Below, one piece after another: positions 6,941 to 59,672 of a DNA stretch of 64,000 nt. A program made the position numbers and the translations under genes. The stretch comes from an uncultured bacterium (GTDB lineage Bacteria; Acidobacteriota; HRBIN11; JAKEFK01). The notes below the pieces were generated by a model. The model had not been told where the DNA came from. It was given only the letters and a program-made list of their open reading frames with translations, and did not search any database. The stretch's first letter is position 1, and every line of letters begins with the position of its first letter. The stretch lies in assembly GCA_963777505.1 (NCBI GenBank), contig CAVZQN010000004.1, positions 96,001-160,000 on the forward strand, read 5' to 3'.

Positions 6941-7106
6941 TCATTACGAAGGTAGGATTCGTGCGTTCCTCCGCTATGTGAGAGCTAACAAAGTGTGACA
7001 ATTAAATGGAACGTTTTATGGGAGGGTGAATGAGCGAGACGCCCCCTGCTTTGCCGCAAGAATTGCTTGATTGCGAGAGTAGGCATGTCTACAATGTTCA
7101 GACGCT

Positions 7107-11927: not shown

Positions 11928-11933
11928 ATTACT

Positions 11934-41535: not shown

Positions 41536-42300
41536 TTACTCGCCGGCATAGTTGAGCGCGCGAACGGCGCCAAAGAACGCCACGATTGTGAATATAAGAA
41601 ATGCGATTGCTTCAATCAGAATGACATCTGGATCTCCGACCCCAAGAGTTGCATATCGAAGCGCATCTGTTTGCCATGTGACAGGATTTAGCCGCGCAGT
41701 ATAACGGAACCATGCCGGAAGATTTTCAAGTGGATAAAACAAGCTGCTTGCAAACATCAACAGAATGTAACAAATGCTTGTGATTGTGTTGAACGAATCG
41801 ATCCTTCGAATTCTTAAAGCAAGAATTGCAAAAAAGAAAAACCAGCCTGCCGTCCCGACTGCAATTGCGAGAAAGGTATATAAGAGTAATGCGCGCTCAA
41901 CTCGCACATTCATAAAAAGTTCAGCGCATAAAATTGCAAGGCCTGATCCCACAAGACTCAGAAAAACATTAAACAGGATTTTGCCGACTACGAGTTCCTG
42001 ACGGCTTACCGGGTATGTCAGTACTTCGTAGAAAATTCCATTTTCACGTTCGGTGAAATACCTCCAGGACGTATTCATGGCGATGCTAAAACATGTCATC
42101 GCTAAAACTCCTGCAAGAAAAAATGAAGCATAATCTGAACCATATCCTGCGGTTGAAAATGAACTGCCAAGTGATCGTTGAAATCCGTACCCAAATATCA
42201 GCAGGTAGGTAATCGGCACAAAAATGTCCCAAAACAGGAATGTTATGTTCGTGATTCTGAAACGATATTCCCGGAATAGAACTGGACCAACGCCTTTCAT
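41536..42300 (-). CDS. ABC-2 type exporter permease
   Basis: ERENG..E.LT.PVSR, SSLFYPLE.LP.W, NPVTW..DALR. Confidence 0.88.
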   Translation of the reverse strand: MKGVGPVLFREYRFRITNITFLFWDIFVPITYLLIFGYGFQRSLGSSFSTAGYGSDYASFFLAGVLAMTCFSIAMNTSWRYFTERENGIFYEVLTYPVSRQELVVGKILFNVFLSLVGSGLAILCAELFMNVRVERALLLYTFLAIAVGTAGWFFFFAILALRIRRIDSFNTITSICYILLMFASSLFYPLENLPAWFRYTARLNPVTWQTDALRYATLGVGDPDVILIEAIAFLIFTIVAFFGAVRALNYAGE

Positions 42301-43241
42301 GACTGCACCGGCCGCATTAATTCAACAAAAATTTCTTCCAGTGAGATACCCCGAATTTCAAAACGTTCGATTCGCCACTTTTGAGAAATTTCAGCAAGCT
42401 GCTGCAGACATGCCGCTTCTTCACCTTCAAACAGCATTTCTGCATCCCTGCCCTCATGTGAAAGTGAAAGTGGCCGTAGCGATTTCAGAGATTCAAAAGC
42501 TTCAGATTGTTCCTCTTCAAAAGTAAGTGATACATGAAACCGTTTGTGCGTAAGTGAACGAAGACGGTCCATGCTTCCACTTGCGATTGTCTTACCATGA
42601 TTCAAAATGACAATGTGATCGCACAGCGCTTCAGCTTCTTCCAATAATTGCGTAGTCAAGAAAATTGTTTTGCCTTGTTTTGAAAGCTCGCGTATTGAAT
42701 CAAGAGTCTGGCGTTTGATGATCGGATCCATGCCTGTTGTCGCTTCATCCAGAAAAAGCAGGGGAGAATCAACAAGAAAGGCTTTTGCAACTTGAAGTCT
42801 TCTGCGCATTCCCACGCTTAAATCCTGCGCTTTCTCTTTTCGTTTGTCTTTTAATTCGAATTGTTCAAGAACTTTCCCAACACGAATCGAAGTTTCTTTT
42901 GCGGTTAGTCCATGAAGACGGGCATAAATCTGGAGGTTATCCCAAACAGACAACAATGTTTCAACAGCAGTTTCCTGAAGAACAACCCCTATTTTTCTCC
43001 GTACATTTAAAGAATCTGTTAGAACATTATGTCCAAAGATCCTGGCACTACCTGAAGTCGGTTGCGTAATCGTTGTAAGGATTCGAACCATTGTTGACTT
43101 CCCTGCGCCATTTGGACCCAACAGCCCGAAGATCTCTCCTTCGTTGACAGTGAAACTAACCCCATCGAGTGCGCGAATTTCCTGCTTCATCCGTCCACGG
43201 TATGTTTTAACGATATTTTCGACTTCGATTATCTTTTGCAT
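42297..43241 (-). CDS. ABC exporter ATP-binding protein (DrrA-like)
   Basis: Walker A GPNGAGKST, LSVGMRRRL, FLDEAT. ATG 43241; the track's GTG at 43250 lies in a repeat. Confidence 0.92.
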   Translation of the reverse strand: MQKIIEVENIVKTYRGRMKQEIRALDGVSFTVNEGEIFGLLGPNGAGKSTMVRILTTITQPTSGSARIFGHNVLTDSLNVRRKIGVVLQETAVETLLSVWDNLQIYARLHGLTAKETSIRVGKVLEQFELKDKRKEKAQDLSVGMRRRLQVAKAFLVDSPLLFLDEATTGMDPIIKRQTLDSIRELSKQGKTIFLTTQLLEEAEALCDHIVILNHGKTIASGSMDRLRSLTHKRFHVSLTFEEEQSEAFESLKSLRPLSLSHEGRDAEMLFEGEEAACLQQLAEISQKWRIERFEIRGISLEEIFVELMRPVQS

Positions 43242-43277
43242 TTCAACCACGATGACACAGAGATATCATATAGGTGA

Positions 43278-43967
43278 ATGGGTACCTCTCGCATACTAGT
43301 TGTTGATGATGAACCTCAGATCACTCGTGTACTGCGCCGAAGTCTTTCTTCTCAAGGATATGAAGTGCAGGTTGCCGAAGATGGCGAAGAAGCTCTTGCC
43401 GTCTTCAAACAATGGAAACCTGAACTTGTTATTACGGATTTATCAATGCCTGGAATGGGCGGACTTGAATTGTGCCGGCGTATTCGAAAAATTTCGAGTA
43501 TTCCAATAATTGTTTTGTCAGTGAAAGGTGAAGAATCAACAAAAGTCGAAGCTCTGGATACAGGAGCGGATGATTACATTACCAAACCGTTCGGTGTCGA
43601 TGAACTCTTTGCACGTATCCGGGTTTCGTTGCGTCATGGAGCCGTGCCTCATGTTGAAGAAGGAACAAAACTGGAAATTGGAGATTTTAAGATAGATCAA
43701 GCCACACGCAACGTAACTGTCCGGAATAAGGAAGTTCATCTAACCCCGAAGGAGTACGAAATCCTTTTGCATTTCTTACGGAATCCAAATCGCATTCTCA
43801 CGCATCGAGCTCTGTTAGGCGCGCTTTGGGGCGGAGAGTTTGTAGATCAAAATGAATATCTTCGTGTGTTTATAGGGCAGCTTCGTAAGAAAATAGAACT
43901 TGATCCTGCAAAACCGCAGTACATTTTGACCGAACCCTGGGTCGGCTACAGATTCAAAGTTGAATAA
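43278..43967 (+). CDS. kdpE: KdpE response regulator (OmpR family)
   Basis: VVDDEPQI, TDLSMP, KVEALD.GADDYITKPFG..EL, YLRVFIGQLRKKIE.DPA.P.YILTEPWVGYRF; kdp context. Confidence 0.93.
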   Translation: MGTSRILVVDDEPQITRVLRRSLSSQGYEVQVAEDGEEALAVFKQWKPELVITDLSMPGMGGLELCRRIRKISSIPIIVLSVKGEESTKVEALDTGADDYITKPFGVDELFARIRVSLRHGAVPHVEEGTKLEIGDFKIDQATRNVTVRNKEVHLTPKEYEILLHFLRNPNRILTHRALLGALWGGEFVDQNEYLRVFIGQLRKKIELDPAKPQYILTEPWVGYRFKVE

Positions 43968-44030
43968 GAAAAGTCTTTGTGCCTTTAGCGGTTAAAAACT
44001 GTGTACCTTAAGACAAAATGAAGAAATGGA

Positions 44031-45137
44031 GTGGTTATCTTATATGGAACTGCCGGCTTAGTGCTGGCAGTTTTGCTTCTATTTCCATTCCGGGAACAGA
44101 TCAATTCCACTCCCGTTGCTTTAACTTTTCTTATTTTAGTTCTGCTTATGGCAGCAATCTTTGGCACATTCCCGGCTATTGTGATGTCGATAGCTTCCAT
44201 GCTTTGTTTTAATTATTTCTTTTTGCCTCCTTACCATACGTTCACAATTACAGACCCACAGAACTGGATTGCACTCTTTGCTTTTCTTGTGACATCAATC
44301 ATCGCAGGAAGTCTTTCTGGAAGAGTGAGGAAACGAGCTGAAGAATCAGAACGTCTTTATCTGGAGCTTCAAGAAATGTTCAAAAAAGCAAGTCAGGCTG
44401 ATGCAATTAAGCAACGAGAGCAGTTGAAGTCAGCTTTACTGGATGCTGTAACTCATGATTTGAGAACTCCTTTGACATCGATGAAAGCTGCAGTTACTAC
44501 GTTGTTAGCAGAGAGTGAATCGACTTTGGATGTTGAAGGCCGGCGAGAAATGCTGGAAGTCATTGATACTGAGATTGACCGATTAAATCATCATCTCGAA
44601 GGCCTGATCGAAATTGCGAAACTTGAAGCGGGAGCAATGCAGCCTCGCCGCATGTGGTCAAGCATTGAAGAAATCATTTCTAATACTCTCGCGCGTGCGT
44701 CAGGGATCACAGCTTCTCACATAATAAAAGTCGAATATGAAGAGAACTTGCCACCAGTTCGTATCGATGAAAAAGCTATTGCAGAAGTCTTGTATCTTTT
44801 GATTGAAAACGCCACAAAATATGCTCCGGTTGAGTCTGAGATTAACGTAAAAGTACAACAAACTGCTGATTTCCTGAAGGTAATTGTCGAAGATCAAGGT
44901 GCAGGGATTCCGGTTGAACTTCGGGAAAAGGTTTTTGACAAATTTTTCCGTTTTGATCCTGTCAATCTTTCGCCGCGTCCGCGTCTTGTTGGGCTCGGAA
45001 TGGGGCTTGCAATTTCGCGTGGAATTATTGAAGCACACTCAGGAAGGATATGGGTTGAAGATACCTCAAGCGGCAAGGGGACTCGCATATGCTTCACCCT
45101 TCCTTTGATGCAATCGGAAGTAAAAGTAGAAGTTTGA
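44031..45137 (+). CDS. Minimal KdpD-type histidine kinase (DUF4118-HisKA-HATPase only)
   Basis: FNYFFLPPYHTFTITDPQNW, intact H-box VTHDLRTPL, ENATKY, DQGAGI, GLGMGLAI. True start may be ATG 44018 (MKKWSGYL/YGT) with one extra base. Confidence 0.88.
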   Translation: MVILYGTAGLVLAVLLLFPFREQINSTPVALTFLILVLLMAAIFGTFPAIVMSIASMLCFNYFFLPPYHTFTITDPQNWIALFAFLVTSIIAGSLSGRVRKRAEESERLYLELQEMFKKASQADAIKQREQLKSALLDAVTHDLRTPLTSMKAAVTTLLAESESTLDVEGRREMLEVIDTEIDRLNHHLEGLIEIAKLEAGAMQPRRMWSSIEEIISNTLARASGITASHIIKVEYEENLPPVRIDEKAIAEVLYLLIENATKYAPVESEINVKVQQTADFLKVIVEDQGAGIPVELREKVFDKFFRFDPVNLSPRPRLVGLGMGLAISRGIIEAHSGRIWVEDTSSGKGTRICFTLPLMQSEVKVEV

Positions 45138-45148
45138 TTCTGCCTTCA

Positions 45149-45188
45149 TACTTACAATATCTTTACGGACTCTTTACTACTTCTTTAC
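45149..45188 (+). promoter_or_regulatory. Putative KdpE binding site (TCTTTAC direct repeats, 11-bp period)
   Basis: TCTTTAC at 45160, 45171 and 45182 plus TACTTAC at 45149; resembles the tandem TTTA(T/C)A half-sites of KdpE boxes. Confidence 0.6.
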
Positions 45189-45220
45189 GTTAGCCGCATC
45201 AAAATCAAATCAGGTGAATT

Positions 45221-47890
45221 GTGGAAAGTGAACGTCCGGATCCTGAGCGTTTGTTAAGGCAAATAAAGGCAGAAGAACGAGAGTCGTCTCGTGCAAAGCT
45301 AAAACTGTTTTTCGGACCCTATCCCGGAGTTGGAAAAACATACGCCATGCTTGAAGCAGCTCGGGAAAGAAAAAAGCAAGGCGTTGATGTTGTTGTCGGG
45401 ATTGTTGAAACGCATGGCCGCCCTGAAACAACTGCTTTATTAAAAGACATGGAGATCCTCCCCAGGAAGGAAATTCCTTACAAAGGTGTGGTTTTAAAAG
45501 AATTCGATCTGGATGCAGCTCTCGCACGAAAGCCAGAAATCATTTTGATTGATGAACTCGCCCATTCAAATCCTTCAGAGAGTCGGCATGCGAAGAGATG
45601 GCAGGATGTGGAGGAGCTTCTAAATGAAGGAATTTCCGTTTATACAACATTGAATGTTCAGCATTGGGAAAGTTTGAATGATGTTGTAGCGCAAATTACA
45701 GGGATCAAAGTTCGTGAAACGGTTCCGGATAGTTTTCTTGAGAAAGCTCATGAAGTGGAACTTGTTGATTTGCCTCCTGCGGATTTATTAAAACGTCTGG
45801 CGGAAGGGAAAGTATATATGGGTGATCAGGCGATCCGCGCAGCAGAAAACTTTTTCCAAACAGGAAACTTAATTGCACTGAGAGAACTTGCATTGCGTCA
45901 TACCGCGGAACGTGTGGACGCAGAAATGCAAGAATTTAAGAATCGATATGCAATCACAAAGGTCCTTCCGGTACGAGAAAGGCTTTTAGTAGGGATTACT
46001 GCCTCGCCAAATTCGCGCAGATTAATTAGAGCGACATTGCGGCTGGCTACAAGTTTGCGATGCGAATGGATTACGCTTTACGTTCAAACTGCAGAGCACG
46101 AAAAATTACCTGCGGATCAAAAAGCGCGAATTATCGATACGCTTCGTCTTGCTGAGAGATTGGGTGGAGAAACCGCAGTTCTGACTGGACAAGATGTTTC
46201 TGAAGAGTTGCTCGCGTACGCAAGAGAGCGAAATGTTACAAAGATAGTCTTAGGAAAACCCTCCAGGCCGCGTTGGAAAGAAATTGTTTTTGGATCAACA
46301 GTCAATGAGATTGCGCGGCGTTCAGGCGAAATTGATTTGTATGTGATTAGCGCAGCAAATCTGTCAGATGAAAAAGTCGTTCGCTATAACCGGGCGGAGG
46401 AGCGTCCATCAAATCGTGGAATCGTTGTCGCAATTCTCCTTATTGCGCTTTGTACGGTTTTAGGATGGGCGCTGATTCAATATCTCGACCGCGCAAATCT
46501 AATCATGTCTTATCTGCTTGCCGTTGTATGGCTCTCTTATAAATATGGAAGACGTACGGGAATTGTTGCTTCCGTTTTGAGTGTACTGTGTTTTGATTTC
46601 TTTCTCGTTCCTCCTTACCTGACCTTCCGTGTTACAGACACTGAATACATCATCACTTTTGTTGGGATGCTTGTTGTTTCACTTTTTATCAGCACAATCA
46701 CCGGCCGTCTCGGTTCACTTGTTAAAGCCACCAGAGGGAGAGAAAGAAGGTTAAGAACTTTGTACAAATTAAGCCGGACACTTGCTGAAATTCCTGAACC
46801 GATGGCGATGCTTCAAGCAGCATGGCAACAGCTAAATGATTTTTACAAAATGCCTGTGATTTTGCTAACACCTGACACCACAGGAAAGTTAAGAATTAGC
46901 GCAGGGGATCCGGAGAGATTTGAATTTGCTGGGAATGATGTTCAAGCTGCTGAATGGGTTTTTCGAAATGAAGAAATTGCAGGACGCGGCAGCCAAACAC
47001 TCGCTGGCTCTAAGGGGACCTATATTCCGCTTCGAGGGAGAGAAAAGTCTGTAGGAGTTCTTGGGATCCGCTTAGAGCAAGATTCCGATTTGATTGACCC
47101 CGAACAACTTCGTTTAATGGAAACTTTTGCAGTAGTCATTGGAAGTGCGCTCGAAAGCAAAGAATTATCCGAACAAGCTGGAAAAGCAACAGCATCAATG
47201 GAAGCCGAAAGGTTACGGAATCTTGTGTTGCGATCATTTTCTTTTGATTTAGCCGCACCTTCTCAACAGATTGTGGAGGTAGCGAGCCATTTAAGGAATT
47301 CTCCCGATTTGTCTCAAAATAAAATGCAGGAAGCGATCCAATCTATATGTGAGAATTCGGAACACATTTTTAAGGTTGCATCGAATCTTCCTCATTATCT
47401 GGAAGAGGAAATTCCAGTACTCTCCGATAACATTCTTCCCAGTAACATAGCGCAGGAACTCAATGAAGATGTTCCGCTTTCCATATATCTCAGCACGGAA
47501 AGGATTTTATTTTTCCCTGCTGAAACAACCAGGAAAGAAGTGTTTGAATCGTTGATTCACACCTTAAAGCTTTCGAATGAAAGAGAAGCATTCAAACTAC
47601 TTGCTGAAAGAGAAGAAGCGGGCGGAATTTTGATCAGACCAAATGTTGCAATTCCTCATACAACAATTGATGGTGTTGATGGTGTAAAGGCTTCATTAGG
47701 AATTCAAAAGACAGAAACCGGTACTCCTTTCTTCTGGTTGCTGTTTGTTTCAGGTCCAGATGCAATTCGTCAGCATCTCGAGTTTTTGAAGAGTGCAGCA
47801 CAAACGCTTTCTGACGAAGTTCTGGGAGAATTGTCGAATACAGATAATTCAGGAAAAGTGCTGAGAATATTAGCTGCAAGCGGGGTTTGA
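45221..47890 (+). CDS. kdpD: KdpD-like sensor (KdpD N-domain, USP, DUF4118, GAF, His-less DHp) fused to a PTS EIIA domain; no HATPase
   Basis: GPYPGVGKT Walker A, IDELAHSN, KRWQDVEELL, LRELALR. H-box reads RSFSFDLAAP. C-terminus EREEAGGILIRPNVAIPH...LLFVS...HLEFLK is EIIA-like. Confidence 0.88.
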   Translation: MESERPDPERLLRQIKAEERESSRAKLKLFFGPYPGVGKTYAMLEAARERKKQGVDVVVGIVETHGRPETTALLKDMEILPRKEIPYKGVVLKEFDLDAALARKPEIILIDELAHSNPSESRHAKRWQDVEELLNEGISVYTTLNVQHWESLNDVVAQITGIKVRETVPDSFLEKAHEVELVDLPPADLLKRLAEGKVYMGDQAIRAAENFFQTGNLIALRELALRHTAERVDAEMQEFKNRYAITKVLPVRERLLVGITASPNSRRLIRATLRLATSLRCEWITLYVQTAEHEKLPADQKARIIDTLRLAERLGGETAVLTGQDVSEELLAYARERNVTKIVLGKPSRPRWKEIVFGSTVNEIARRSGEIDLYVISAANLSDEKVVRYNRAEERPSNRGIVVAILLIALCTVLGWALIQYLDRANLIMSYLLAVVWLSYKYGRRTGIVASVLSVLCFDFFLVPPYLTFRVTDTEYIITFVGMLVVSLFISTITGRLGSLVKATRGRERRLRTLYKLSRTLAEIPEPMAMLQAAWQQLNDFYKMPVILLTPDTTGKLRISAGDPERFEFAGNDVQAAEWVFRNEEIAGRGSQTLAGSKGTYIPLRGREKSVGVLGIRLEQDSDLIDPEQLRLMETFAVVIGSALESKELSEQAGKATASMEAERLRNLVLRSFSFDLAAPSQQIVEVASHLRNSPDLSQNKMQEAIQSICENSEHIFKVASNLPHYLEEEIPVLSDNILPSNIAQELNEDVPLSIYLSTERILFFPAETTRKEVFESLIHTLKLSNEREAFKLLAEREEAGGILIRPNVAIPHTTIDGVDGVKASLGIQKTETGTPFFWLLFVSGPDAIRQHLEFLKSAAQTLSDEVLGELSNTDNSGKVLRILAASGV

Positions 47891-47891
47891 C

Positions 47892-48635
47892 ATGCAATTT
47901 AAGAAACTCATGGGTTACATAGCATCGGTGGGAACAATCGCTCTGACGGTTTTACTTTTCAAGCGCATTTTCTCGGATGCTACACCGGCAACCGTCGCTC
48001 TTATACTCGTTGTTGAGGTGTTGTTCGCAGCAACTTTTGGCGGATTCGGTCCTGGACTTTTAGCAGCTGTAATAGCAGCATTGTCATTCAATTTCTTTTT
48101 CCTTCCTCCTTATGGAACTTTCACGATTGCCCATCCTGCAGATGTTGTATCGTTTTTTGTCTTCCTTTCAACTGCAATTGTTGTGAGCAAATTATCCTCT
48201 GCCGTGCGACAACGTGCAGTAGAAGCAGAGCGCAGAAAAGATGAAGTAGAGCATCTTTATCAGTTTGCAAAGGTACTGATTGAAACTCCCGATACTCTTG
48301 AAGGTGCATCATCCATCGCCAGCAAGATCGTTGAAATTTTCCGAGTAAAGTATGCAGGCATCTATGTTCCTGACAAAAGCGGCAAATGGAAACATGTATC
48401 AGTGAGTTCAAATGAGCTTAAGGACATAGCTCTACCTCAGCCGGAAACATTACGAAGCAACACAATCGCCGAGATGATTGATGAATATGGGAAGGGGGTC
48501 CAATACACGGTTATGAACACTCCTTCTCGAAACATTGGCGTGATAGCGTTGCGTGCACCTGATCTGTCCAAGGATACGATCGCAGCCATTGCAAGTCTCG
48601 TTGCTCTTACTGTTGAAAGAAATCGGTTAATCTAG
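47892..48635 (+). CDS. DUF4118 + GAF-like membrane protein (third KdpD fragment)
   Basis: FNFFFLPPYGTFTIAHPAD, coiled coil, GAF-like tail ending IASLVALTVER; starts 1 nt after the kdpD-like stop. Confidence 0.82.
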   Translation: MQFKKLMGYIASVGTIALTVLLFKRIFSDATPATVALILVVEVLFAATFGGFGPGLLAAVIAALSFNFFFLPPYGTFTIAHPADVVSFFVFLSTAIVVSKLSSAVRQRAVEAERRKDEVEHLYQFAKVLIETPDTLEGASSIASKIVEIFRVKYAGIYVPDKSGKWKHVSVSSNELKDIALPQPETLRSNTIAEMIDEYGKGVQYTVMNTPSRNIGVIALRAPDLSKDTIAAIASLVALTVERNRLI

Positions 48636-48727: not shown

Positions 48728-51104
48728 TTGATTGATCAGACGATTTCGCATTACACCATTCTCAAAAAGCTTGGTGGCGGTGGAATGGGAGTCGTGTATG
48801 AAGCGGAGGATCTTAGCCTCAAACGTCATGTTGCACTCAAATTCCTTCCTGAATCGGTAGCTGAGACTCCGGAGACGCTTGAACGTTTCCGGCGGGAAGC
48901 ACAATCAGCATCTGCGCTTAATCATCCAAATATCTGCACGATATACGAAATTGGTGAACACGATGGTCGTCCTTTCATTGCAATGGAGATGATGAAGGGT
49001 GAGACCTTGAAGCATGCGATTGATGGAAAGCCAATGGAGATTGATACCGTGCTCGATCTGGGGGCACAAATTGCAGATGCGCTCGATGCTGCGCATACGG
49101 AAAGGATTATTCACCGTGACATTAAGCCGGCAAACATATTCGTCACAGAACGTGGCCAGGCAAAGCTGCTGGATTTTGGATTGGCAAAACAGGGAACAGC
49201 AGCGACTGGAGATACTGAAATGCCAACGGCCAGTACTCCGGCACAATTGACGCAAGCTGGTTCTACTCTGGGCACATTTGCGTATATGTCCCCCGAACAA
49301 GCGCGCGGCAAAGTGCTTGATTCGCGTACCGATCTTTTCTCTTATGGAGTTGTGCTCTATGAAATGGTAACCGGCACCCAACCTTTTGTTGGCAGCAGTA
49401 CAGGCGAAGTATTGGAAGCTATTTTTACAAAGGTACCAGTGTCGCCTGTGCGCTTAAATCCGAATATTCCTGTAGAACTAGAACGCATCATATATAAGGC
49501 GCTCGAAAAGGATCCCAATCTGCGATACCGAAGCGCCGCTGATATTCGAACTGATCTTCAACGATTGAAGAGAGACACTCTTTCCAGCGTTCCAGGCAGC
49601 ACTGTTGCAAGAGATACAGCTACAAAAATCCACTCAGCAAAAAAGTCACGGACACTCTGGGTTGGTGTCACAGCTGCAGTGGCAACAATAGTTCTGCTTG
49701 TAGTTTTCTGGCTAGGCCAAAAACCGAAGACCGCAGTGCAAACTACTGGTCCGATTTCGATAGCCGTGCTCCCGTTTGTAAACATGAGTGCGGATAAAAA
49801 TCAGGAATATTTTTCCGATGGCCTTTCAGAACAATTGCTAAACGATCTGGCCAAAACTCGTGGCTTGCGCGTAATCGCAAGAACTTCGTCTTTTCAATTT
49901 AAGGGAAAGAATGAAGACCTTCGTGTGATTGGTAAAAAATTGGATGTTGCAAATATATTGGAAGGAAGTGTACGGAAAGAGGGGAATAAAGTGCGAATTA
50001 CTGCGCAATTAATTCAAACTTCAGATGGATCCCATTTATGGTCTGATACCTATGATCGAGAACTAAATGATGTTTTTGCGGTGCAGGATGATATTGCACG
50101 ATCCGTAGCTGGAGCATTGAAGGTCACGCTTCTAGGACAAACAGCAAGTAGTTCAAAGTCACAAAATGCGGAAGCATATAACCTTTACCTGCAAGGTCGT
50201 TACTTCCAAGATCGAAGCACCATGGAAGACCTTCAGAAGGCGACAAACTCTTTTGAGCAAGCACTTCAACTTGAGCCTGGCTATGCTCTGGCCCACGCAG
50301 GCTTAGCCAGTATTTACTTTAGGCAGGCAGGTTTGGGCCACCTCGCCGCTGTTGAAGGCTTTGAAAAAACGCGGAATGAGGTAGAAAAAGCGCTGAAGAC
50401 CGATCCAAATTTGGCCGAGGCCTACGCAATGCTAGGGCGGGTCCAATTGAATTATGACTGGGATTGGGCCGGTGCCGATGCTTCCTTTCAGAGAGCGTTG
50501 GAACTGGAACCAGGGAACGCGAGAGCAGTTCGGAACGCTGCCGTTCTTGCTGGTACTCTTGGCAGGTTTGAAGAAGCCATTGAACTGAATCTGAAAGCAA
50601 TCGACCTCGATCCTCTAAACATCGGAAGCTATTTGAATCTCGCAAGCTGGTACCACTCTGCCGGCCGGTTGAAGGAGTCAGAGTCCACAACGGCGAAGGC
50701 CTTGAAGCTAAATCCACAATTTCCTGGTGCACACTATCGGATTTTCCTTCTCTACCTGGACACAAATCCGCAAGCGGCACTTGCTGAGATAAAGCGCGAA
50801 ACAGAGCCAATCTGGCGCGACCAAGGTCTCGCTCTGGTTACCTATGCGATGGGGAATAAAAAAGAGGCGGACAAAGTACTTGACAAAGTATATTGAAGAT
50901 TCCCAGACTATCGCGGCTTTTCAGATCGCCCAGATTTATGCCTACCGTCGTGAAACGGATTACACATTCGAATGGCTTGAACGTGCTTATCAACAACATG
51001 ACGGTGGTCTTGCCGAAATGAAAGGCGATCCGTTGCTGCGCAACATCGAAAATGACCCACGATATGCGGCATTCCTGAAAAAAATGAAACTGCCTCTGGA
51101 TTAA
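48728..51104 (+). CDS. Hanks-type Ser/Thr kinase with TolB-like (SIAVLPF) and TPR domains; apparent frameshift near 50880
   Basis: [34 protein letters not shown]...EYFSDGL, TPR repeats; C-terminus in ORF 50844-51104 (DP.L...DPRY). Confidence 0.9.
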
Positions 51105-51134: not shown

Positions 51135-51174
51135 TCTTTACGAACTTTTTATTCCCCTCTTTCTCCTTTCTTAC
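51135..51174 (+). promoter_or_regulatory. Second putative KdpE box upstream of the porin-kdpFABC unit
   Basis: TCTTTAC 51135, TTTTTAT 51146, TCTTTCT 51158, TTCTTAC 51168 (about 11-bp period). Confidence 0.5.
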
Positions 51175-51207: not shown

Positions 51208-52300
51208 ATGAATAGACTCCTACTACTCGTCTCGCTTTTACTGAGCTCAATTTGTATAGCACAAACTGAAAATGAGGGTGAGGCTGAAGAACCTCCCGCT
51301 GTAACCTTTAGCGGATTTTTGGAAGCTTATTACTCTTATGACTTCGATAATCCCGATGATCATAAACGGCCATTTTTTCTTTACTCGTATAACAAGCACA
51401 ATGAAGTCAATATCAATCTTGCTTACCTTAAGGCTGCTTACAATTCGGAAAGAGTTCGCGGCAATCTTGCCCTTATGGCTGGTACATATGCAAACGCAAA
51501 CCTTGCTGCAGAATCAGGAGTTTTAAAGAATATTTATGAAGCCAATGGAGGCATCAAGGTTTCTCAAGATCGGGATCTCTGGATCGATGCAGGAATTTTT
51601 GGTTCTCATATTGGTTTCGAAACCGCAATTGGACCAAGCAACTGGACATTAACCCGCAGCATTCTTGCTGAAAATTCTCCATACTACGAGTCCGGCGCAA
51701 AAGTTTCTTACACATACTGATGGGGGAGAGTGGTTTTTTAGCGGATTAATCTTAAACGGCTGGCAACGGATTGAAAGACCAGAAGGGAATAATACTCCAG
51801 CATTTGGAACTCAATTAACCTATAAGCCGAGCGATACATTCTTCTTCAACTACAGCACTTTTATCGGAAATGATAAACCAGATGATGCAAAGCAATGGCG
51901 TAATTTCCATGACTTTTATGCGATAGCTCAGCTCACTCCAAAATTCGGGATCACCGCAGGATTCGATATTGGTTTTGAAGAAGAACCGCCAGGCGGTGAG
52001 GGCTATAACACCTGGTGGACACCGATCGTGATCGTGAGATATTCAGCAACAGACAAAATCAACATTGCTGCAAGAGCGGAATATTACAGCGATGAAGACG
52101 GAGTGATTGTTGCTACAGGAACACCAAATGGATTCAAGACAGCCAGTTACTCAGTCAATGTTGATTACGCATTTACCGATCATATTCTCTGGCGAATTGA
52201 GGGACGAGGATTTCACAGCGAAGATGACATTTTTAACGTGACCGAAGATCCATCCTCATCCAATTTTGCAATGACTACATCGCTGTCTTTGACATTTTGA
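51208..52300 (+). CDS. Outer-membrane beta-barrel porin (BBP2/OmpL-like); apparent frameshift near 51712
   Basis: Signal peptide, YYSYDF, GIF.SHIGFE, AENSPYYE.G, NGWQ, AR.EYY.D, C-terminal F; ORFs 51208-51720 and 51665-52300. Confidence 0.82.
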
Positions 52301-52303
52301 AGT

Positions 52304-52333
52304 GTACGGGGCGGGTCTTAGACCCGCCCCTAC
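52304..52333. repeat. GTAG-type REP hairpin, family A
   Basis: GTACGGGGCGGGTCTTAGACCCGCCCCTAC. Confidence 0.85.
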
Positions 52334-52348
52334 GAACAGGAGCTTGTT

Positions 52349-52435
52349 ATGTGGGATCTTTTTTTTATCGGATTAACAATCGTTTTTTTCTTACTCAGTC
52401 TCGCTTACGTGCGAGGATGTGAGAAATTGCAGTAG
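52349..52435 (+). CDS. 28-aa single-TM peptide upstream of kdpF (Kdp accessory candidate)
   Basis: SD AGGAG, MWDLFFIGLTIVFFLLSLAYVRGCEKLQ*; below the ORF-track cutoff. Confidence 0.75.
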   Translation: MWDLFFIGLTIVFFLLSLAYVRGCEKLQ

Positions 52436-52445
52436 GAGAAACATT

Positions 52446-52535
52446 ATGGGTCTCGAATCAATTTTAGGGCTGACCGTTTCTGTATTGCTGCTTTTCTATT
52501 TGGTCTACGCGTTGTTGAGTCCCGAGAGGTTCTAA
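52446..52535 (+). CDS. kdpF: K+-transporting ATPase subunit F
   Basis: SD AGGAG, MGLESILGLTVSVLLLFYLVYALLSPERF* (YL.YALL.PE.F signature); stop 1 nt before the kdpA ATG. Confidence 0.92.
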   Translation: MGLESILGLTVSVLLLFYLVYALLSPERF

Positions 52536-52536
52536 G

Positions 52537-54337
52537 ATGACAATCAACGGCTGGCTACAAATTCTTTTTTATTTTCTATTGATTCTGTTGGTGACAAAAC
52601 CAATTGGCGTATTCATGGCACGTGTTTTTAACCGTGAAAAAACATTTCTCGATCCCGTTTTGAGACCAATTGAAAGGTTGATTTATAAATTGACCGGGGT
52701 TGATGAGAATCGTGAAATGCGTTGGACGGAATACGCGGTTGCGATGTTGCTGTTTAGCGTTGTTTCCATGGTTGTTCTTTATTTCATGCAACGGTTGCAG
52801 CATATTCTGCCTTTCAATCCGCAAAACTTAGCTGCGATTAATGAACATTCGTCTTTTAATACAGCAGCATCTTTTACGACAAACACAAACTGGCAGAGTT
52901 ATGTGCCTGAAGTAACGATGAGCTATCTCACACAGATGGCAGGCCTGGCTTATCACAACTTCATTTCTGCGGCTGTTGGAATTGCACTTGCAATCGCTTT
53001 CATACGCGGGATAGCCAGACGGGAAATGAATACGATTGGAAATTTCTGGGTTGATACGGTACGAGCAACTCTGTGGGTGCTGTTGCCGTTTTGCGTTGTT
53101 GGTGCTCTGTTTCTAGTTTCGCAAGGCGTGGTTCAAAATCTGAACCCATACGACACGGTTCAGCTTGTTGGAAAAACAAACGACTGAAGTCGATAAAAAG
53201 GATGAGGCAGGAAATGTCATTACAAATCCGGATGGCACCACTGCTAAGAAATCAACACAAACAATCGCTCAAGGCCCGGTAGCATCTCAAGAATTCATAA
53301 AAGAATGGGGAACGAATGGCGGCGGATTTTTCAATGCAAATAGTTCACATCCATTCGAAAATCCGACACCGTTTTCAAACTTAATTGAAATGTTTGCGAT
53401 TTTTGCGATTTCAGCTGGACTCACTTACACCCTAGGTCAGAATGACCGGCTCACAAAAACATGGATGGGCAGTATTCGCCGCAATGGCATTTCTCTTTTT
53501 TGTAGGCGTCACGGTAGCGTACTGGGCCGAATCGAATGGAAATCCATTGTTAACCGGTACAGATCAAAGCACGAGTGCAACGCAATCCGGCGGCAATATG
53601 GAAGGGAAGGAAATTCGATTTGGACTTGCGAATAGTGCTTTGTTTGCGACCGTAACCACGGATGCGTCCTGCGGCGCAGTAAATTCGATGCACGATTCCT
53701 ACACCCGCATTGGGCGGATTGGTACCGCTTTCAAACATCATGCTCAGTGAAGTGGTCTTTGGCGGAGTCGGCGCAGGAATGTACGGAGTACTCATCTATA
53801 TAGTGCTCTCGGTTTTCATTGCAGGATTAATGGTTGGCAGAACGCCAGAATATTTAGGAAAAAAGATCGAATCCTATGACGTAAAGATGGCAATGCTGAA
53901 TATTCTGATTTTTCCTCTCTTCATACTCGTTCTTACTGGCATTTCTGTAGTTGCATCATTTGGATCTATCCAGTATTTGGAATCCTGGGCCCCATGGGCT
54001 AAGCGAAGTTTTGTATGCCTTCACTTCTGGAACTGGAAATAACGGATCGGCTTTCGCAGGAATTTCAGCGAACACTCCCTGGTATAACACGACGATCGGC
54101 CTAGCGATGCTGTTTGGCCGCTTCTTCATGATTATTCCAGTGCTGGCTTTAGCAGGAAATCTCGCACGGAAGAAAACAGTGCCAGCAAGTCCAGGCACTT
54201 TTCCAGTAACCACGCCTTTATTCACTGTCTTACTTGTAAGTGTGATTTTGATTGTCGGTGCACTGACATTTTTTCCGGTACTAAGCCTTGGACCTATTGT
54301 GGAACATCTGTTGCTGTATGCCGGAAAAACATTTTGA
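52537..54337 (+). CDS. kdpA: K+-transporting ATPase subunit A (about 4 apparent frameshifts)
   Basis: [77 protein letters not shown] across consecutive ORFs. Confidence 0.93.
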
Positions 54338-54347
54338 GGTTGTATAA

Positions 54348-56393
54348 ATGACAACGAAAGCAAAGAAACAAGCGATTTGGAATACGCAAATTGTAACGCG
54401 TGCTCTGATTGATTCCTTTAAGAAACTAAATCCACGGATCATGATGAAGAATCCTGTCATGTTTGTTGTGGAAGTGGGGAGTGTAATCACAACGATCTTG
54501 TTGATTCGGGACCTCATGGCAGGCACCGGTGGTATCGGGTTCGCACTTCAAATCACGCTCTGGCTCTGGTTCACAGTATTGTTTGCAAATTTTGCTGAAG
54601 CGATGGCTGAAGGCCGCGGAAAAGCGCAGGCTGAAAATCTAAAAAAAGCGCGAACCGAAATCTAACGCACATCGCGCTTTTGCCAAAGGAGAAACTGAAA
54701 CAGTTCCCGCTCCAAAATTACGCAAGGATGATGTTGTTATTGTTTCGGCCGGCGAATTCATTCCAAGTGATGGTGAAATTATTGAAGGTGTCGCTTCAGT
54801 GGATGAATCTGCAATTACAGGTGAATCTGCTCCCGTTATCCGTGAAGCAGGTGGAGACCGCTCTGCAGTTACAGGCGGAACCCGTGTCTTATCAGACCAA
54901 ATCAAAGTCCGAATCACATCGAATCCAGGTGAGACTTTTCTTGATCGAATGATTGGACTGGTTGAAGGAGCGACACGACAAAAGACGCCGAATGAAATCG
55001 CATTAAATATTTTGCTTGCAGGTTTAACCATCATCTTTCTTGTTTGCTGTCGTTACTCTGCAACCTTTTGCGATTTATTCAAAAGCACCACAATCCATTT
55101 TTGTATTGGTTTCACTGCTGGTTTGTCTGATTCCAACAACAATCGGTGGTTTGCTTTCAGCAATCGGTATTGCTGGAATGGATCGTTTAATTCAACACAA
55201 TGTTCTTGCAATGTCTGGACGATCCGTAGAGGCTGCAGGAGATGTAAATACGTTGTTGTTGGATAAAACGGGAACGATCACACTTGGCAACCGTCAGGCA
55301 TCCGAATTTATTCCGCTTCCTGGAGTTGATGAAACCACGCTTGCTGATGCTGCTCAGCTTTCTTCGCTTGCGGACGAAACTCCTGAAGGTCGAAGCATCG
55401 TTGTATTAGCAAAAGAAAAATATAAAATGCGTGGCCGTGAGCTGGCACCGCACGAAGCTCGTTTCATTAAATTCAGCGCACAAACACGGATGTCGGGTGT
55501 TGATTATGATGGCCGGATCATTCGAAAAGGTGCAGCGGATGCAATCGAGAAATTTGTTGTCAGCAATCAGGGTGCTGCTCCAAAAGAGTTGCGTGAAATT
55601 GTAGAACGCATTGCAAAAGCCGGCGGCACACCACTTGTTGTCGCGGAGAATGCAAAAGCACTCGGTGTCATTCACTTAAAAGACATTGTTAAAGGTGGAA
55701 TGAAAGAACGGTTTACTCAACTGCGGGCGATGGGAATTAAAACAATCATGATCACCGGTGATAATCCACTCACTGCCGCTTCTATCGCAGCTGAAGCCGG
55801 TGTCGATGATTTTCTGGCTGAAGCAACACCTGAAGAAAAAATGACGTTGATTAAGAAGGAACAAACTGAAGGCAAACTTGTAGCAATGACTGGTGATGGT
55901 ACGAACGACGCTCCTGCGCTGGCTCAAGCCGACGTTGCTGTCGCAATGAATACAGGGACGCAAGCTGCGAAAGAAGCAGGAAATATGGTGGATCTGGATT
56001 CGAATCCTACGAAGCTAATTGAAATTGTTGAGATCGGGAAACAGCTCTTGATGACGCGCGGAGCTCTGACAACATTTTCAATTTCAAATGATGTCGCAAA
56101 ATACTTTGCGATAATTCCTGCGATGTTTTCTGCTGCCTTTCCGGTTTTGAATGCATTAAACATCATGGGCTTACGCACGCCTCAATCAGCAATTCTTTCT
56201 GCCGTAATTTTCAATGCGCTAATTATCATCGCTTTGATCCCACTCGCTCTTCGCGGTGTAAAATACAGGCCGACTTCCGGCTGCTGCTCTATTAAGGAGG
56301 AATCTGGTGGTTTATGGAGTTGGCGGCATAATCGTTCCATTTATAGGCATCAAAATCATTGATGTTTTCATCAATGCAATCGGACTTGCGTAA
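54348..56393 (+). CDS. kdpB: K+-transporting P-type ATPase subunit B (several apparent frameshifts)
   Basis: [57 protein letters not shown]; ends ..INAIGLA* at 56393. Confidence 0.93.
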
Positions 56394-56397
56394 CGAA

Positions 56398-56430
56398 TTT
56401 GCAGCGCCGGCGGGCCGCCGGCGCTACAAA
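56398..56430. repeat. GTAG-type REP variant hairpin between kdpB and kdpC
   Basis: TTTGCAGCGCCGGCGGGCCGCCGGCGCTACAAA; the reverse strand reads TTTGTAGCGCCGGCGG... Confidence 0.65.
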
Positions 56431-56444
56431 CAGGAGAGGTGAAT

Positions 56445-57004
56445 ATGAAAAATCTGAAGATTGCAATTTTAATGACGATTGTAACAACGCTTTTTCTTGG
56501 AATCGATTTATCCACTCGTAGTAACAGGTCTTGCTCAAGTTTTGTTTCCTGACAAAGCGAATGGACAATTAATTAAAAGATAAAAATGGAGCTGTTATCG
56601 GCTCTCGAATCATCGGTCAACCATTTTCATCCTCCAAATATTTTCATTCACGACCTTCGGCCGCGGGCGCAGTCGGCTATGATGCAGGAGCTTCCAGTGG
56701 TTCGAACCTTGGCCCCACAAACCAGAAGCTGATTGACCGCGTAAAAGCTGATGTGGAAAAACGACAGGCGGAAAATCCAGGTACGCCCGTTCCAATTGAT
56801 CTTGTCACTACATCTTCATCAGGACTTGATCCGCACATTTCTCCGGCTGCTGCAGAATTTCAGGTTCCACGAATTGCACGTGAACGTGGTATGAGTGAAG
56901 AGGAACTCCGAAAGCTTGTGGCCAAACATACTGAGGGCAGGCAATTTGGATTTTTAGGAGAACCACGGGTGAATGTACTTTTGTTGAATTTGGATCTTGA
57001 TTAA
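56445..57004 (+). CDS. kdpC: K+-transporting ATPase subunit C (apparent frameshifts near 56505 and 56580)
   Basis: [79 protein letters not shown]. Confidence 0.9.
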
Positions 57005-57020
57005 CCGCAAAGACGCAGAG
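57001..57020. repeat. Family B repeat monomer
   Basis: TTAACCGCAAAGACGCAGAG overlapping the kdpC stop; related copies at 20463, 35129, 40659, 41512, 43245, 43975. Confidence 0.65.
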
Positions 57021-57021
57021 G

Positions 57022-57852
57022 CTATTTCTTATAAAGATCTACAATCTGCTTGACGCTCTTTGAAATTCCAAGTGATGAAGTATCGATTGTGTGATCGGCC
57101 ATTGCATATAATGCCTCGCGGCCGCGCAATAAAGTTTGAAGTTGTTCCATTGCATTCGGATTATTCGCCATAGGTCGGGGATCTTGCTGCAGCACGCGAT
57201 CCCAATGGTCCTGCGGGTTTGCTTTGAGCCAGAACGTGACGCAGTGTTGTCTGAAGATGTTGTAGGTATCTTCCCTGGTTACGATACCACCACCGGTTGC
57301 GAGAACTGCAGGAGTACGGCTCGCAAGAAATTCTACGAGTACTTCGCGTTCCAAACGTCTGTAATATTCTTCGCCATGCACTTCAAAAATATTTTGTAAT
57401 CGAAGACCTGCTGCCCGTTCGATTCGATCGTCCAGTTCAACAAAATTCTTTTTCAGTCTTGTTGCTGACTTTTTTCCCAATTGTTGTTTTGCCAGCGCCT
57501 CGTAATCCGATTAATGCAATCACCGGTTTACTTTGATCCAGTTTTTGCCGCAAGCCATAAACGCAACTCTTCCATTTGATCGGGACGCAATAAAGTGAGT
57601 TGTGTCAGAATGGATTGATTTTCTGCGGCATGTCTTCGCGAATTGGATAAACCAGAAATGAGAGTTGTAACGGGCACCTGAAGCGCAGAACAAACTGCAA
57701 GTAATCGGTAAACGCAATATTGCCACGTCCGGCTTCCAGTTCCGCTAGAAAACGGAGACTCAAACCGGAAAGTCTGGAGAGCTCTTGACGGGAAATTCCA
57801 CGCTCCTGACGTAAAAAGGAAATTCGCCGCCCAGCTCGGTAAGCGCATTCAT
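57022..57852 (-). CDS. boxR: BoxR/BzdR-family regulator (XRE HTH + shikimate-kinase-like domain), apparent frameshifts
   Basis: HTH RQERGISRQELSRLSGLSLRFLAELEAGRGNI; IALIGLRGAGKTTIG, IFEVHGEEYYRRLE, ATGGGIV; divergent from boxC. Confidence 0.85.
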
Positions 57853-57856
57853 AATA

Positions 57857-57915
57857 GGAACTATACTGCATCTCATATTCAATTGACAAGTGTTAATGTA
57901 TGCATTAAAATTCAT
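57857..57915 (+). promoter_or_regulatory. boxC promoter with BoxR/BzdR-like operators
   Basis: TTGACA (57883-57888), 17-nt spacer, TAAAAT (57906-57911). TGCA-N6-TTCA at 57901-57914 overlaps the -10; GGAA-N6-TGCA at 57857-57870. Confidence 0.65.
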
Positions 57916-57947
57916 TCATCCTCAGAAGCATTATCTTAAGGTGACCC

Positions 57948-59581
57948 ATGATTTCATTTGAAACATCTCCCGATCAGTACCGTCATTGGAAATTAAGTTT
58001 TCCTGAGAAAAATATTGCATTTCTTGAATTGGATGTTCAAGAAGATGCGCCGTTAAAACCAGAATACAAGCTCAAGCTGAATTCCTATGATCTAGGAGTC
58101 GATATTGAGCTTGCTGATGCGATTCAACGTTTGCGATTTGAGCATCCTGAAATTAGTGCGGTTGTTGTTCGAAGCGGGAAGAACAACATTTTTTGCGCTG
58201 GTGCGAATATTTTTATGCTTGGAACAAGCAGTCATTCATTCAAAGTCAATTTTTGCAAATATACAAATGAAACACGACTCGCGATTGAAGATGCCAGTGA
58301 GAACAGCGGACAACGTTATATTGCTGCGTGCAATGGAACGACAGCAGGTGGTGGATACGAGCTTGCGCTTGCCTGCGACGAAATCGTTCTGGTTGATGAT
58401 GGAAACAGTGCTGTTAGTTTGCCTGAAACTCCGCTGCTTGCCGTACTTCCCGGTACTGGTGGATTAACGCGTCTTGTTGATAAAAGGAAAGTGCGTCGCG
58501 ATCAAGCTGATGTATTTTGCACACTTGCTGAAGGCATCAAAGGCCAGCGAGCCGTAGATTGGAATTTAGTGGATACGCTTAGCGCCTCGAAGCAAGTTTG
58601 ATCAAATCGTTCTGGAACATGCCCGCAGGCACGCGGCACATGATCAAAGCGAAAAGGGTCCGGGTATTGTGTTGACCCCAGTAAATCCTGAAATCACCGA
58701 TAACGAAGTTCGTTATCAAAATGTGACATTGACTTTTGATCGAGCGCGAAGAGTTGCAACTCTTTTGGTACGTGGTCCTGAAGAAGATCTGCCTGACACA
58801 CTGCCGGCAATTTTAGAATTGGGTTCAGAGTATTATCCACTTCAAACTTTTCGCGAAATCGATCGTGCTCTTCTTCATTTACGTTTCAATGAACCTGAAA
58901 TTGGATTGTTGATTATAAAAACGAAAGGAAATATTGAAAATGTAAGAAAGATGGATGAGACGCTCGCTGCTCATTCAACGAATTGGTTTGTACAAGAAGT
59001 GCTTCTATATATGAAGCGTACTCTGAAGCGTCTCGATCAAACGGCGCGAAGCATGTTTGCATTGATCGAACCTGGTTCCTGTTTTGCAGGCAGTTTGCTG
59101 GAGCTGGCTCTGGCAGCGGATCGTTCGTACATGCTGGATAGTCCGGAGGAAGAAGTCGCAATTGAGCTGACGTCAATGAATACAGGATTTTTCCCGATGG
59201 CGAATGGATTGTCCCGATTGAATAGTCGATTTCAATCGGACTGCAGAGAAAGTACAAATGATTGTTGAAAAGCAGAAAAAATATAATGCGGCAGGAGCGT
59301 TGGAAGCCGGTCTTGTGACATTTGCGATTGATGATATCGATTATGAGGATGATGTGCGGGTTGCCATCGAGGAACGTGCGAGTCTTTCGCCGGATGCATT
59401 GACAGGAATGGAAGCAAATCTTCGTTGGGGTGGACCTGAAACGATGGAAACGAAAATTTTTGCGCGTTTGTCCGCGTGGCAAAATTGGATTTTTACCAGA
59501 CCAAATGCAGTTGGTGAACGCGGCGCATTAACTTTGTATGGAAAACCAGAACGTCCAGTGTTCGATTACAAGCGAACTTAA
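57948..59581 (+). CDS. boxC: 2,3-epoxybenzoyl-CoA dihydrolase BoxC (about 2 apparent frameshifts)
   Basis: YRHWKL, LKLNSYDLGVDIELADAIQRLRFEHP, FCKYTNETR, PGTGGLTRLVDKRKVRRD, ETMETKIFARLSAWQNWIF.RPNAVGE.GAL. Confidence 0.93.
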
Positions 59582-59619
59582 GTTGGTGGCCGCCGTGCAA
59601 ATCTGCTTCACAAACACCT

Positions 59620-59643
59620 GGGCGACCCAAGAGTCGCCCCTAC
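59620..59643. repeat. GTAG-type REP variant
   Basis: GGGCGACCCAAGAGTCGCCCCTAC between boxC and boxB. Confidence 0.7.
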
Positions 59644-59672
59644 TAGCTTACGTTTTATTGTTGGAGTTTCAT

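Follow-up and report, generated by a model that had tools for sequence, protein, structure and literature searches.

The control of the Kdp potassium pump has been described in several forms, with which we compare here a locus of an uncultured member of the Acidobacteriota (contig CAVZQN010000004.1 of assembly GCA_963777505.1), where kdpE is followed by three genes, designated P1, P2 and P3, whose products all carry the transmembrane (TM) domain of KdpD. The named homologues also suggest this phylum as the probable host. Positions are those of the whole 64-kb stretch that was analysed, called the window. Every domain type of the tandem serine-histidine kinase system KdpD/KdpE of E. coli (PMC11018627) is present at the locus, and so are its Walker A/B serine-kinase site, its K+ loop motif, the TGES motif of KdpB and a KdpE box with an 11-bp period, but here the domains lie on three chains, the histidine kinase has no GAF domain, the serine-kinase chain ends in a pseudo-DHp and an EIIA domain, and there is an additional, sensor-only chain. 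Separation of the serine- and histidine-kinase functions, including cases in which both chains are membrane-bound, is already catalogued (PMC11018627). The class 'Truncated DHpCA + TM, GAF, DHpCA' comprises 33 of 5495 species, 28 of them Bacillota (Supplementary Data 2 of that paper); its members have membrane domains on both chains, contrary to an earlier note on this DNA, which held that known splits detach a soluble N-terminal domain only. Like this class, our locus has a membrane-bound serine-kinase chain without histidine kinase activity (P2, with F or Y for the His and no CA domain) and a separate membrane-bound histidine kinase. Unlike it, the partner kinase P1 is GAF-less, whereas that of the class is listed with GAF; the class has no third chain, lists no Acidobacteriota, and its truncated chains (629-680 aa in the rows covered) are too short for an EIIA domain. 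In 31 of 37 Acidobacteriota the split is between a soluble KdpD-Usp protein and a TM-GAF-DHpCA kinase (PMC11018627). P1 (TM plus transmitter) and P3 (TM plus GAF) are of the sequence type of that kinase, but here a membrane-bound chain of the proteobacterial full-length type replaces the soluble KdpD-Usp, and GAF and transmitter are on different genes. In split systems the serine-kinase chains remain in the pump operon and the histidine kinase is separate; what regulates KdpD as a serine kinase was left open (PMC11018627).

Two further systems are relevant. PtsN (EIIA-Ntr) binds the DHp domain of KdpD in E. coli (review, PMC8534201) and its GAF domain in S. fredii (PMC9239096). P2 likewise places an EIIA fold with a phospho-His beside DHp and GAF, but the EIIA is covalently fused to a chain unable to phosphorylate KdpE, and by score it is not a PtsN equivalog. 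Caulobacter crescentus has a KdpD histidine kinase without a GAF domain detectable by Pfam, as P1 does; there, however, KdpD is single and has His670, and the passages covered mention no sensor-only partner (bioRxiv 2023.07.05.547876). The same work suggests GAF as the inner K+ sensor, tied to phosphatase activity, and leaves the cytoplasmic K+ site unidentified. A KdpD-EIIA fusion, a TM-GAF-only kdp gene and KdpE control of either were not found in the literature searched, mostly without subscription papers; EIIA or PTS gave no match in the supplements of PMC11018627 as far as these were searched, and one Pseudomonadota row of Supplementary Data 2, 'KdpD, Usp + TM, GAF + DHpCA', is a possible exception. 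Within the scope of these searches, the EIIA fusion of P2 and the sensor-only P3 are two undescribed parts of Kdp regulation.

We propose, with a probability of about 50%, that Kdp control is split here into a standing ON module, P1 and KdpE, and a KdpE-induced feedback module, P2 and P3. The four open reading frames (ORFs) were found in the window where the earlier note had placed them, all on the forward strand, with P3 beginning 1 nt after P2. Domains were called with Pfam, and family membership was judged by NCBIfam scores against family cut-offs. For comparison, one pattern scan of 185,579 GTDB species genomes gave 17 loci, three with the fusion (L001, L002 and L003) and 14 with a canonical KdpD.

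The ON module begins with kdpE (43278-43967), an OmpR-family response regulator (Pfam Response_reg and Trans_reg_C) that is 73-74% identical to the regulators of L002 and L003; its best NCBIfam match was KdpE PRK10529, with 214 bits, below the cut-off of 325. P1 (44018-45137) is a GAF-less 4TM-DHp-CA histidine kinase, the only histidine kinase of the trio. Its homologues begin like the frame at 44018, so that the start is probably ATG 44018, with a frame break near 44045 and a continuous ORF at 44031-45137. Pfam returned DUF4118, HisKA with the HDLRTP box intact and HATPase_c, without KdpD, Usp or GAF, as the earlier note had described, and the score to canonical KdpD (PRK10490) was 165 bits against a cut-off of 1123. 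The H, N, G1, F and G2 boxes were all intact. P1 retains H142 and the Thr at H+4; H142, N260, D288, G290, G292, F302, F305, G321, G323 and G325 were invariant in 92 rows, and the H-[DE]-x-RTP box was kept in 119 of 120 P1-like matches. About 120 aa are absent between TM and DHp: the distance from the loop to the H box was 82-89 aa in the 101 of 120 P1-like matches where it was measurable, vs 173-277 aa in 33 GAF-bearing kinases. P1-type kinases are common, the best 120 matches all being of P1 architecture, with about 51-74% identity excluding the self match. With the outer K+ loop kept and GAF absent, P1 would very probably phosphorylate KdpE when outside K+ is low.

The division into two modules comes from the KdpE boxes, which the earlier note does not mention. 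The E. coli KdpE site is TTTATA-N5-TTTACA (PMC3264566). On the forward strand of the window, a repeat of 3-4 TTTAC half-sites with an 11-bp period (45150-45188), ending about 33 nt before P2, contains two perfect YTTTAC-N5-YTTTAC matches, and there are no others in the 64 kb. A second KdpE-type box (51136-51152, +), with 1 mismatch, lies 72 nt before the porin-kdpFABC operon. In the relatives a box precedes P3, with 1 mismatch at 62 nt in L001, 1 mismatch at 42 nt in L003 and 2 mismatches at 62 nt in L002, compared with 0 mismatches ahead of the window P2-P3 pair. These predicted boxes fit the regulon criterion of two 6-bp T-rich repeats 5 bp apart ahead of a gene. Of 10 canonical kdpA genes, 9 are preceded by the motif (only 193 nt lie upstream of the other one), and of 12 canonical kdpD genes none is; among 364 window tiles taken as background, 5 had it with no more than 1 mismatch and 19 with no more than 2. 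No box with up to 2 mismatches precedes kdpE or P1 in the window, and scans for sigma-70 promoters and terminators gave results at or below chance. The boxes before P2-P3 place P2 and P3 downstream of KdpE, not upstream. By these predicted boxes, P2 and P3 look like KdpE targets that are made with the pump and are not needed to start the response, and they are probably co-produced with it. Judging from the box positions and their controls, it is highly likely that phosphorylated KdpE would bind the TTTAC boxes and induce the pump operon, P2 and P3.

P2 (45221-47890; 889 aa) has the order KdpD (atypical Ser kinase)-Usp-4TM-GAF-pseudo-DHp-EIIA, by Pfam, alignment and model, the EIIA being of the phosphotransferase system (PTS). 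Pfam matched KdpD, Usp, DUF4118, GAF_3 and PTS_EIIA_2 and neither HisKA nor HATPase. P2 scored 675 bits to canonical full-length KdpD (PRK10490; cut-off 1123), and no chain of the trio carries all KdpD domains; against the soluble KdpD-Usp family (NF038185, KdpD-like non-kinase sensor) it scored 391 bits vs 550, and its 889 aa include four TM helices. A family search with residues 640-889 returned 34 proteins. EIIA was present in 33, one of them 98% identical to the window P2 and one partial, and the 34th stops at 707 aa. In an alignment of the window protein with 29 matches (30 rows), Walker A G-X5-GKT (GPYPGVGKT) and Walker B D111/E112 were conserved wherever the region is covered (29 rows; the remaining one is frameshifted). 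These satisfy the Walker pattern of the KdpD atypical serine kinase, and the residues match those required in PMC11018627. The adenine-binding position (W39 in E. coli) is Y in 19 and F in 10 rows in place of W, and R192 is invariant in 30 of 30; its equivalence to E. coli R190 is inferred from position, not from alignment. The substrate is found in the same system: kdpB encodes ITGESAP at about 54814-54834 (TGES at about 54817-54828), as had been claimed, and L001-L003 have the TGES motif as well. The division of labour foreseen in the earlier note is supported, P1 being the sole histidine kinase and P2 keeping the serine-kinase motifs beside a KdpB with its TGES. By analogy with E. coli, the N-terminal part of P2 would be an atypical serine kinase acting on KdpB at high K+, and very likely would phosphorylate the TGES serine and halt the pump when K+ recovers.

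In P2, F675 occupies the His site (FDLAAP), which agrees with the description of P2 as a His-less KdpD-EIIA protein; the site is F in 13 and Y in 17 of the 30 rows, and F or Y in 34 of 34 family matches. The pseudo-DHp (aa 655-730; 47183-47410) has also lost R+3 and T+4. Thr at H+4 is the phosphatase residue of HisKA kinases. Having no His, no CA domain and no Thr at H+4, P2 is unable to act catalytically on KdpE. Both DHp helices are kept, at 627-692 and 700-730 in the predicted model, and mean pairwise identity in the family was 0.77 in helix 1, 0.66 in TM, 0.64 in GAF, 0.44 in helix 2 and 0.54 in EIIA. The idea of the earlier note that the proteins may hetero-oligomerise could, in a strong form, mean one sensor made of all three, in which the pseudo-DHp of P2 pairs with the DHp of P1 and the fused EIIA acts on P1 in trans. 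The retention of both helices, with helix 1 more conserved than TM or GAF, speaks for it. A model for E. coli has PtsN on one protomer activating the other (PMC8534201). P1 and P2 also lie on shared contigs in L002 and L003, and in an indirect matching of assemblies 8 of 34 P2 matches paired with a listed P1 match (two of these being L002 and L003) and 2 of 34 with a P3 match. However, homodimers of P2, or the docking of its own EIIA, would account for the conservation of helix 1 just as well, helix 2 is variable, the genes are under different control and freely reordered, P1 and P2 come from different lineages, and P1-type kinases reach well past the P2 family (the best 120 listed, all of the same architecture, vs 33 fusion clusters). 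The pseudo-DHp matched a P1 DHp profile weakly (probability 34, E 4e-4). We consider such a mixed sensor quite unlikely.

The EIIA domain (Fru/Ntr-type; aa 753-886; 47477-47878) scored 33.2 bits to PF00359, above the cut-off of 27, which makes it a member of PTS EIIA_2. It aligns to PtsN 3urr, with His813 at the PtsN phospho-His position, and PtsN structures took ranks 5-8 and 10 in a Foldseek search with the predicted model. The full-length P2 model had a predicted TM-score (pTM) of 0.32, from which the placement of EIIA is not readable. The EIIA would accept phosphate from an HPr/NPr-type carrier. As a built-in PtsN with PTS input through His813, which we somewhat favour, it would dock on the retained pseudo-DHp or on GAF, the surfaces bound by free PtsN in other bacteria, and pump shut-off would thereby depend on the state of the PTS; that it would act in cis on the serine kinase has, in our estimate, a little less than an even chance. 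The domain could instead be a non-phosphorylated cap or ligand-binding module that stabilises a truncated DHp, the system being the known two-chain split with a minor extra gene. The weak EIIA scores to PtsN and FruA, the mean identity of only 0.54 within the domain, and the truncated-DHpCA chains of Bacillota, which manage without EIIA at the lengths given above, speak for a cap. The invariance of His813 and Arg797 in 30 of 30 rows while the rest of the domain drifts, and the retention of the fusion in 33 of 34, speak against it, and we regard the cap as unlikely. P2, which dropped the histidine kinase, kept the DHp and gained an EIIA, predicts PTS gating of pump shut-off, beyond transcription, with His813 as the residue at issue. 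A plasmid search gave no match for the P2 EIIA, and a protein atlas gave, for a P2 homologue, HisKA-like leads only, under 0.9.

P3 (47892-48635; 247 aa) is a kinase-less 4TM-GAF protein. Pfam detected DUF4118 only and no GAF in the C-terminal half. A model built from 30 sequences (mean predicted local distance difference test, pLDDT, 88.5) had GAF domains as its top matches (best Z 11.7, root-mean-square deviation 3.2, 125 aligned), so that the DUF4118-GAF label of the earlier note is right by structure, not by Pfam. The loop motif said to be common to the trio was present in all three chains (FNYFFLPPYHTF, FDFFLVPPYLTF, FNFFFLPPYGTF), but it does not mark them out, being the ordinary KdpD loop that is found also in TM-GAF kinases and canonical KdpD. 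The score of P3 to PRK10490 was 64 bits (cut-off 1123). A word search found five full-length relatives with 51-77% identity, and a profile search of 50%-identity representatives listed 150 matches, 43 of 240-290 aa and 46 of at least 400 aa. From these a set of 28 was formed (23 representatives, one further word-search match, the window P3 and three locus proteins); having been picked by P3 profile and length, it is biased toward a single clade. With that bias, 27 of 28 sequences formed one clade (support 95/97) of at least 23 50%-identity clusters; the remaining one, P0291, fell among kinases and was dropped from the P3 counts. All 27 are 245-284 aa long and end after GAF with no H box. Compared with 39 TM-GAF kinases, Y154 was present in 26 of 27 vs 4 of 39 and C155 in 24 of 27 vs 4 of 39; E198 was present in 26 of 27. 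The TM-GAF tree shows a much greater depth for the P3 clade than for the P2 family, which makes it probable that P3 exists also without the EIIA fusion. The fusion itself is rare, which limits the reach of the finding, and P3 looks wider. A plasmid search yielded no full-length P3 (0 of 108 records covered at least 80% of it), the protein atlas no leads for P3, and a PDB sequence search with the P3 profile the KdpD TM domain only. Among the matches, P0113, P0116 and P0121 are other DUF4118 plus GAF-like proteins of about 250 aa; their scores to the P3 profile are low, and they may represent another sensor-only family of independent origin.

The three fusion loci tell which genes stay together. 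P2 and P3 were found together in 3 of 3 and P1-kdpE also in 2 of 3, with a gene order unlike that of the window. In L001-L003 P3 stands directly before kdpF-like ORFs and kdpA, whereas P2 closes the pump operon and overlaps the kdpC stop in L001 and L002; P1-kdpE lies upstream in L002 and L003. No separate P1 or P3 was seen in the 14 canonical loci, of which some are short. The survey of co-occurrence that the earlier note had asked for therefore agrees with it, relatives carrying a single one of these genes not having been met. With synonymous sites saturated, selection is given as proportions of nonsynonymous (pN) and synonymous (pS) differences only, without exact dN/dS. In each of the 27 comparisons pN was much lower than pS; between the P3 genes of L001 and L002 pN was 0.23 vs pS 0.75, compared with a pN of 0.20 for kdpC. 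These values bear on the reading of P2 and P3 as decaying remnants of duplicated or imported kdpD genes, for which one could cite the frameshifted pump genes of the window and a frameshift that splits P2 in L003. Low pN throughout, the uniform length and ending of the 27 P3 sequences, and a gene content that is kept although the order differs make decay very improbable and largely refute it. None of the trio is decaying; the genes are conserved and under selection. Two of the loci had other features near KdpD genes: right after P2 in L002 is a convergent Kup (K_trans) potassium transporter gene (11002-12699, minus strand), and the canonical locus L007 has a 423-aa KdpD-like chain (6650-7921) directly ahead of full-length kdpD.

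The trio did not arise from one KdpD divided over three genes, as the earlier note had supposed. P2 groups with the full-length KdpD of proteobacteria in the TM-GAF tree (support 100/100), away from P3 and the acidobacterial-type kinases. P1 and P3 belong to separate acidobacterial-type lineages that are not sisters in the weakly resolved TM tree. A single gene cut into three pieces would not give these placements. Going by the trees and domain content, it is an assembly of a full-length-type KdpD whose CA was replaced by EIIA and two old TM-GAF-DHp-CA kinase paralogues, P1 without GAF and P3 without transmitter. Two single-chain proteins combine such parts. P0275 has a P3-like TM-GAF (38% identity) followed by a DHp-CA of P1 type (53%), which falls within the P1 clade with support 99. 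Because P1 and P3 have complementary domains and P0275 joins them, they were considered as halves of one recently split gene; in this strict sense the idea was rejected, as the TM tree does not join them, and P0275 may be a re-fusion. P0272 is an 898-aa full-length KdpD made of acidobacterial-type KdpD-Usp and TM-GAF-kinase parts and looks like an independent re-fusion.

What P3 does is the least secure part of the proposal. Made only after induction, it might give P1 its missing cytoplasmic GAF input and damp P1 in trans, which we advance tentatively as the weakest step. In favour are P0275, where a P3-like TM-GAF and a P1-type DHp-CA share one chain, and the conserved GAF residues peculiar to P3. 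A complex prediction with two P1 and one P3 (score 0.01, mark 0.32) counts neither for nor against binding. P3 might instead partner the pump or P2: induced by KdpE, it would be an accessory protein of the membrane, sensing K+ or a different GAF ligand and adjusting either KdpFABC or the P2 serine kinase. In all three relatives its gene immediately precedes the kdpF-like ORFs and kdpA, in the window it is coupled to P2, L001 has P3 without a nearby P1, its TM-GAF is in register with that of P2, and its GAF has residues not shared with those of kinases; by gene position, a pump or P2 partner fits at least as well as a P1 partner. On the other side, the much deeper P3 clade suggests that P3 probably occurs without the fusion, the TM-GAF parts of P3 (window) and P2 (L001) are only about 25% identical and differ in descent, and P3 is in none of the 14 canonical loci. 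We consider this alternative somewhat unlikely. As a small natural TM-GAF sensor without any output, P3 could help to locate the cytoplasmic K+ site, and it suggests that two-component systems may use induced, sensor-only paralogues for feedback.

Several observations weigh against the proposed two-module circuit. L001 has neither P1 nor kdpE inside the fetched 10 kb, and the association of P3 is therefore closer with the pump operon than with P1. The P1-kdpE promoter was seen in the window only, L002 and L003 being cut inside P1, and the box pattern was first spotted before the window P2, which is hence not an independent test site. The GAF-less KdpD of Caulobacter is reported to work as a single protein (bioRxiv 2023.07.05.547876), so P1 may need no partner; in the TM tree (128 columns, weak resolution) P1 falls among acidobacterial-type kinases and is not sister to P3. 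On the PTS side, the EIIA scored 17.6 bits to the PtsN equivalog TIGR01419, far below the cut-off of 138.7, the residues ahead of its His are GGILIRP vs GSTGLGE in PtsN, and no PTS carrier gene is among the scanned window ORFs. A bolder version of the circuit, which we judge improbable, would make P2 the hard-wired PtsN-bound protomer of the E. coli PtsN/KdpD2/KdpE model, pairing with P1, such that one PTS phospho-switch sets both kdp transcription and serine shut-off. P3 would then be an old and widespread Kdp component without a name so far, a K+ sensor that lacks a kinase, is induced by KdpE and gives the GAF-less kinase its GAF off-switch back in trans.

The pump genes lie downstream on the same strand. 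kdpA, kdpB and kdpC (52537-57004) are frameshifted in the window, as is the preceding porin gene. Ten aligned kdpA/B/C segments contained no stop codon and two porin segments contained one; several frame breaks are near base runs and others are not, and kdpA, kdpB and kdpC are all intact in L001. The frameshifts in the pump genes are most likely sequencing errors rather than decay. The region 51700-61000 is richer in frameshifts than the left part of the window (porin, kdpABC, the shikimate kinase region and box/paa-like genes), which suggests lower sequence quality there. Beyond the pump genes, 57528-60910 holds an XRE-type regulator fragment, labelled from sequence, a shikimate-kinase domain and enoyl-CoA hydratase and PaaA-like genes, suggesting a benzoate (box) degradation cluster. 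A Ser/Thr kinase-TPR gene (48728-50896), apparently frameshifted at its 3' end, lies between P3 and the porin-kdp operon. On the other side of the locus, an ABC-2 exporter pair (41536-43250, minus strand) is transcribed away from kdpE; only 27 nt separate the ORFs, a gap so short that the promoters must overlap coding sequence.

The kdp operon is led, behind its own KdpE box, by the gene of a BBP2-family outer-membrane porin (51208-52300, +; Pfam), whose intact homologue stands before P3 in L001 (1567-2643). L002 (1784-2341) and L003 (7295-8059) have another secreted-looking protein inside the cluster, without a Pfam match, and the two kinds of protein are possibly interchangeable outer-membrane partners. 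Between porin and kdpA the short-ORF list gave two small ORFs (52349-52535, +), and similar pairs precede kdpA in the DNA of L001-L003. The second of them (52446-52535) is kdpF-like, by its size and end motif; the first (52349-52435), also small and hydrophobic, is reminiscent of the extra small Kdp subunits of some bacteria.

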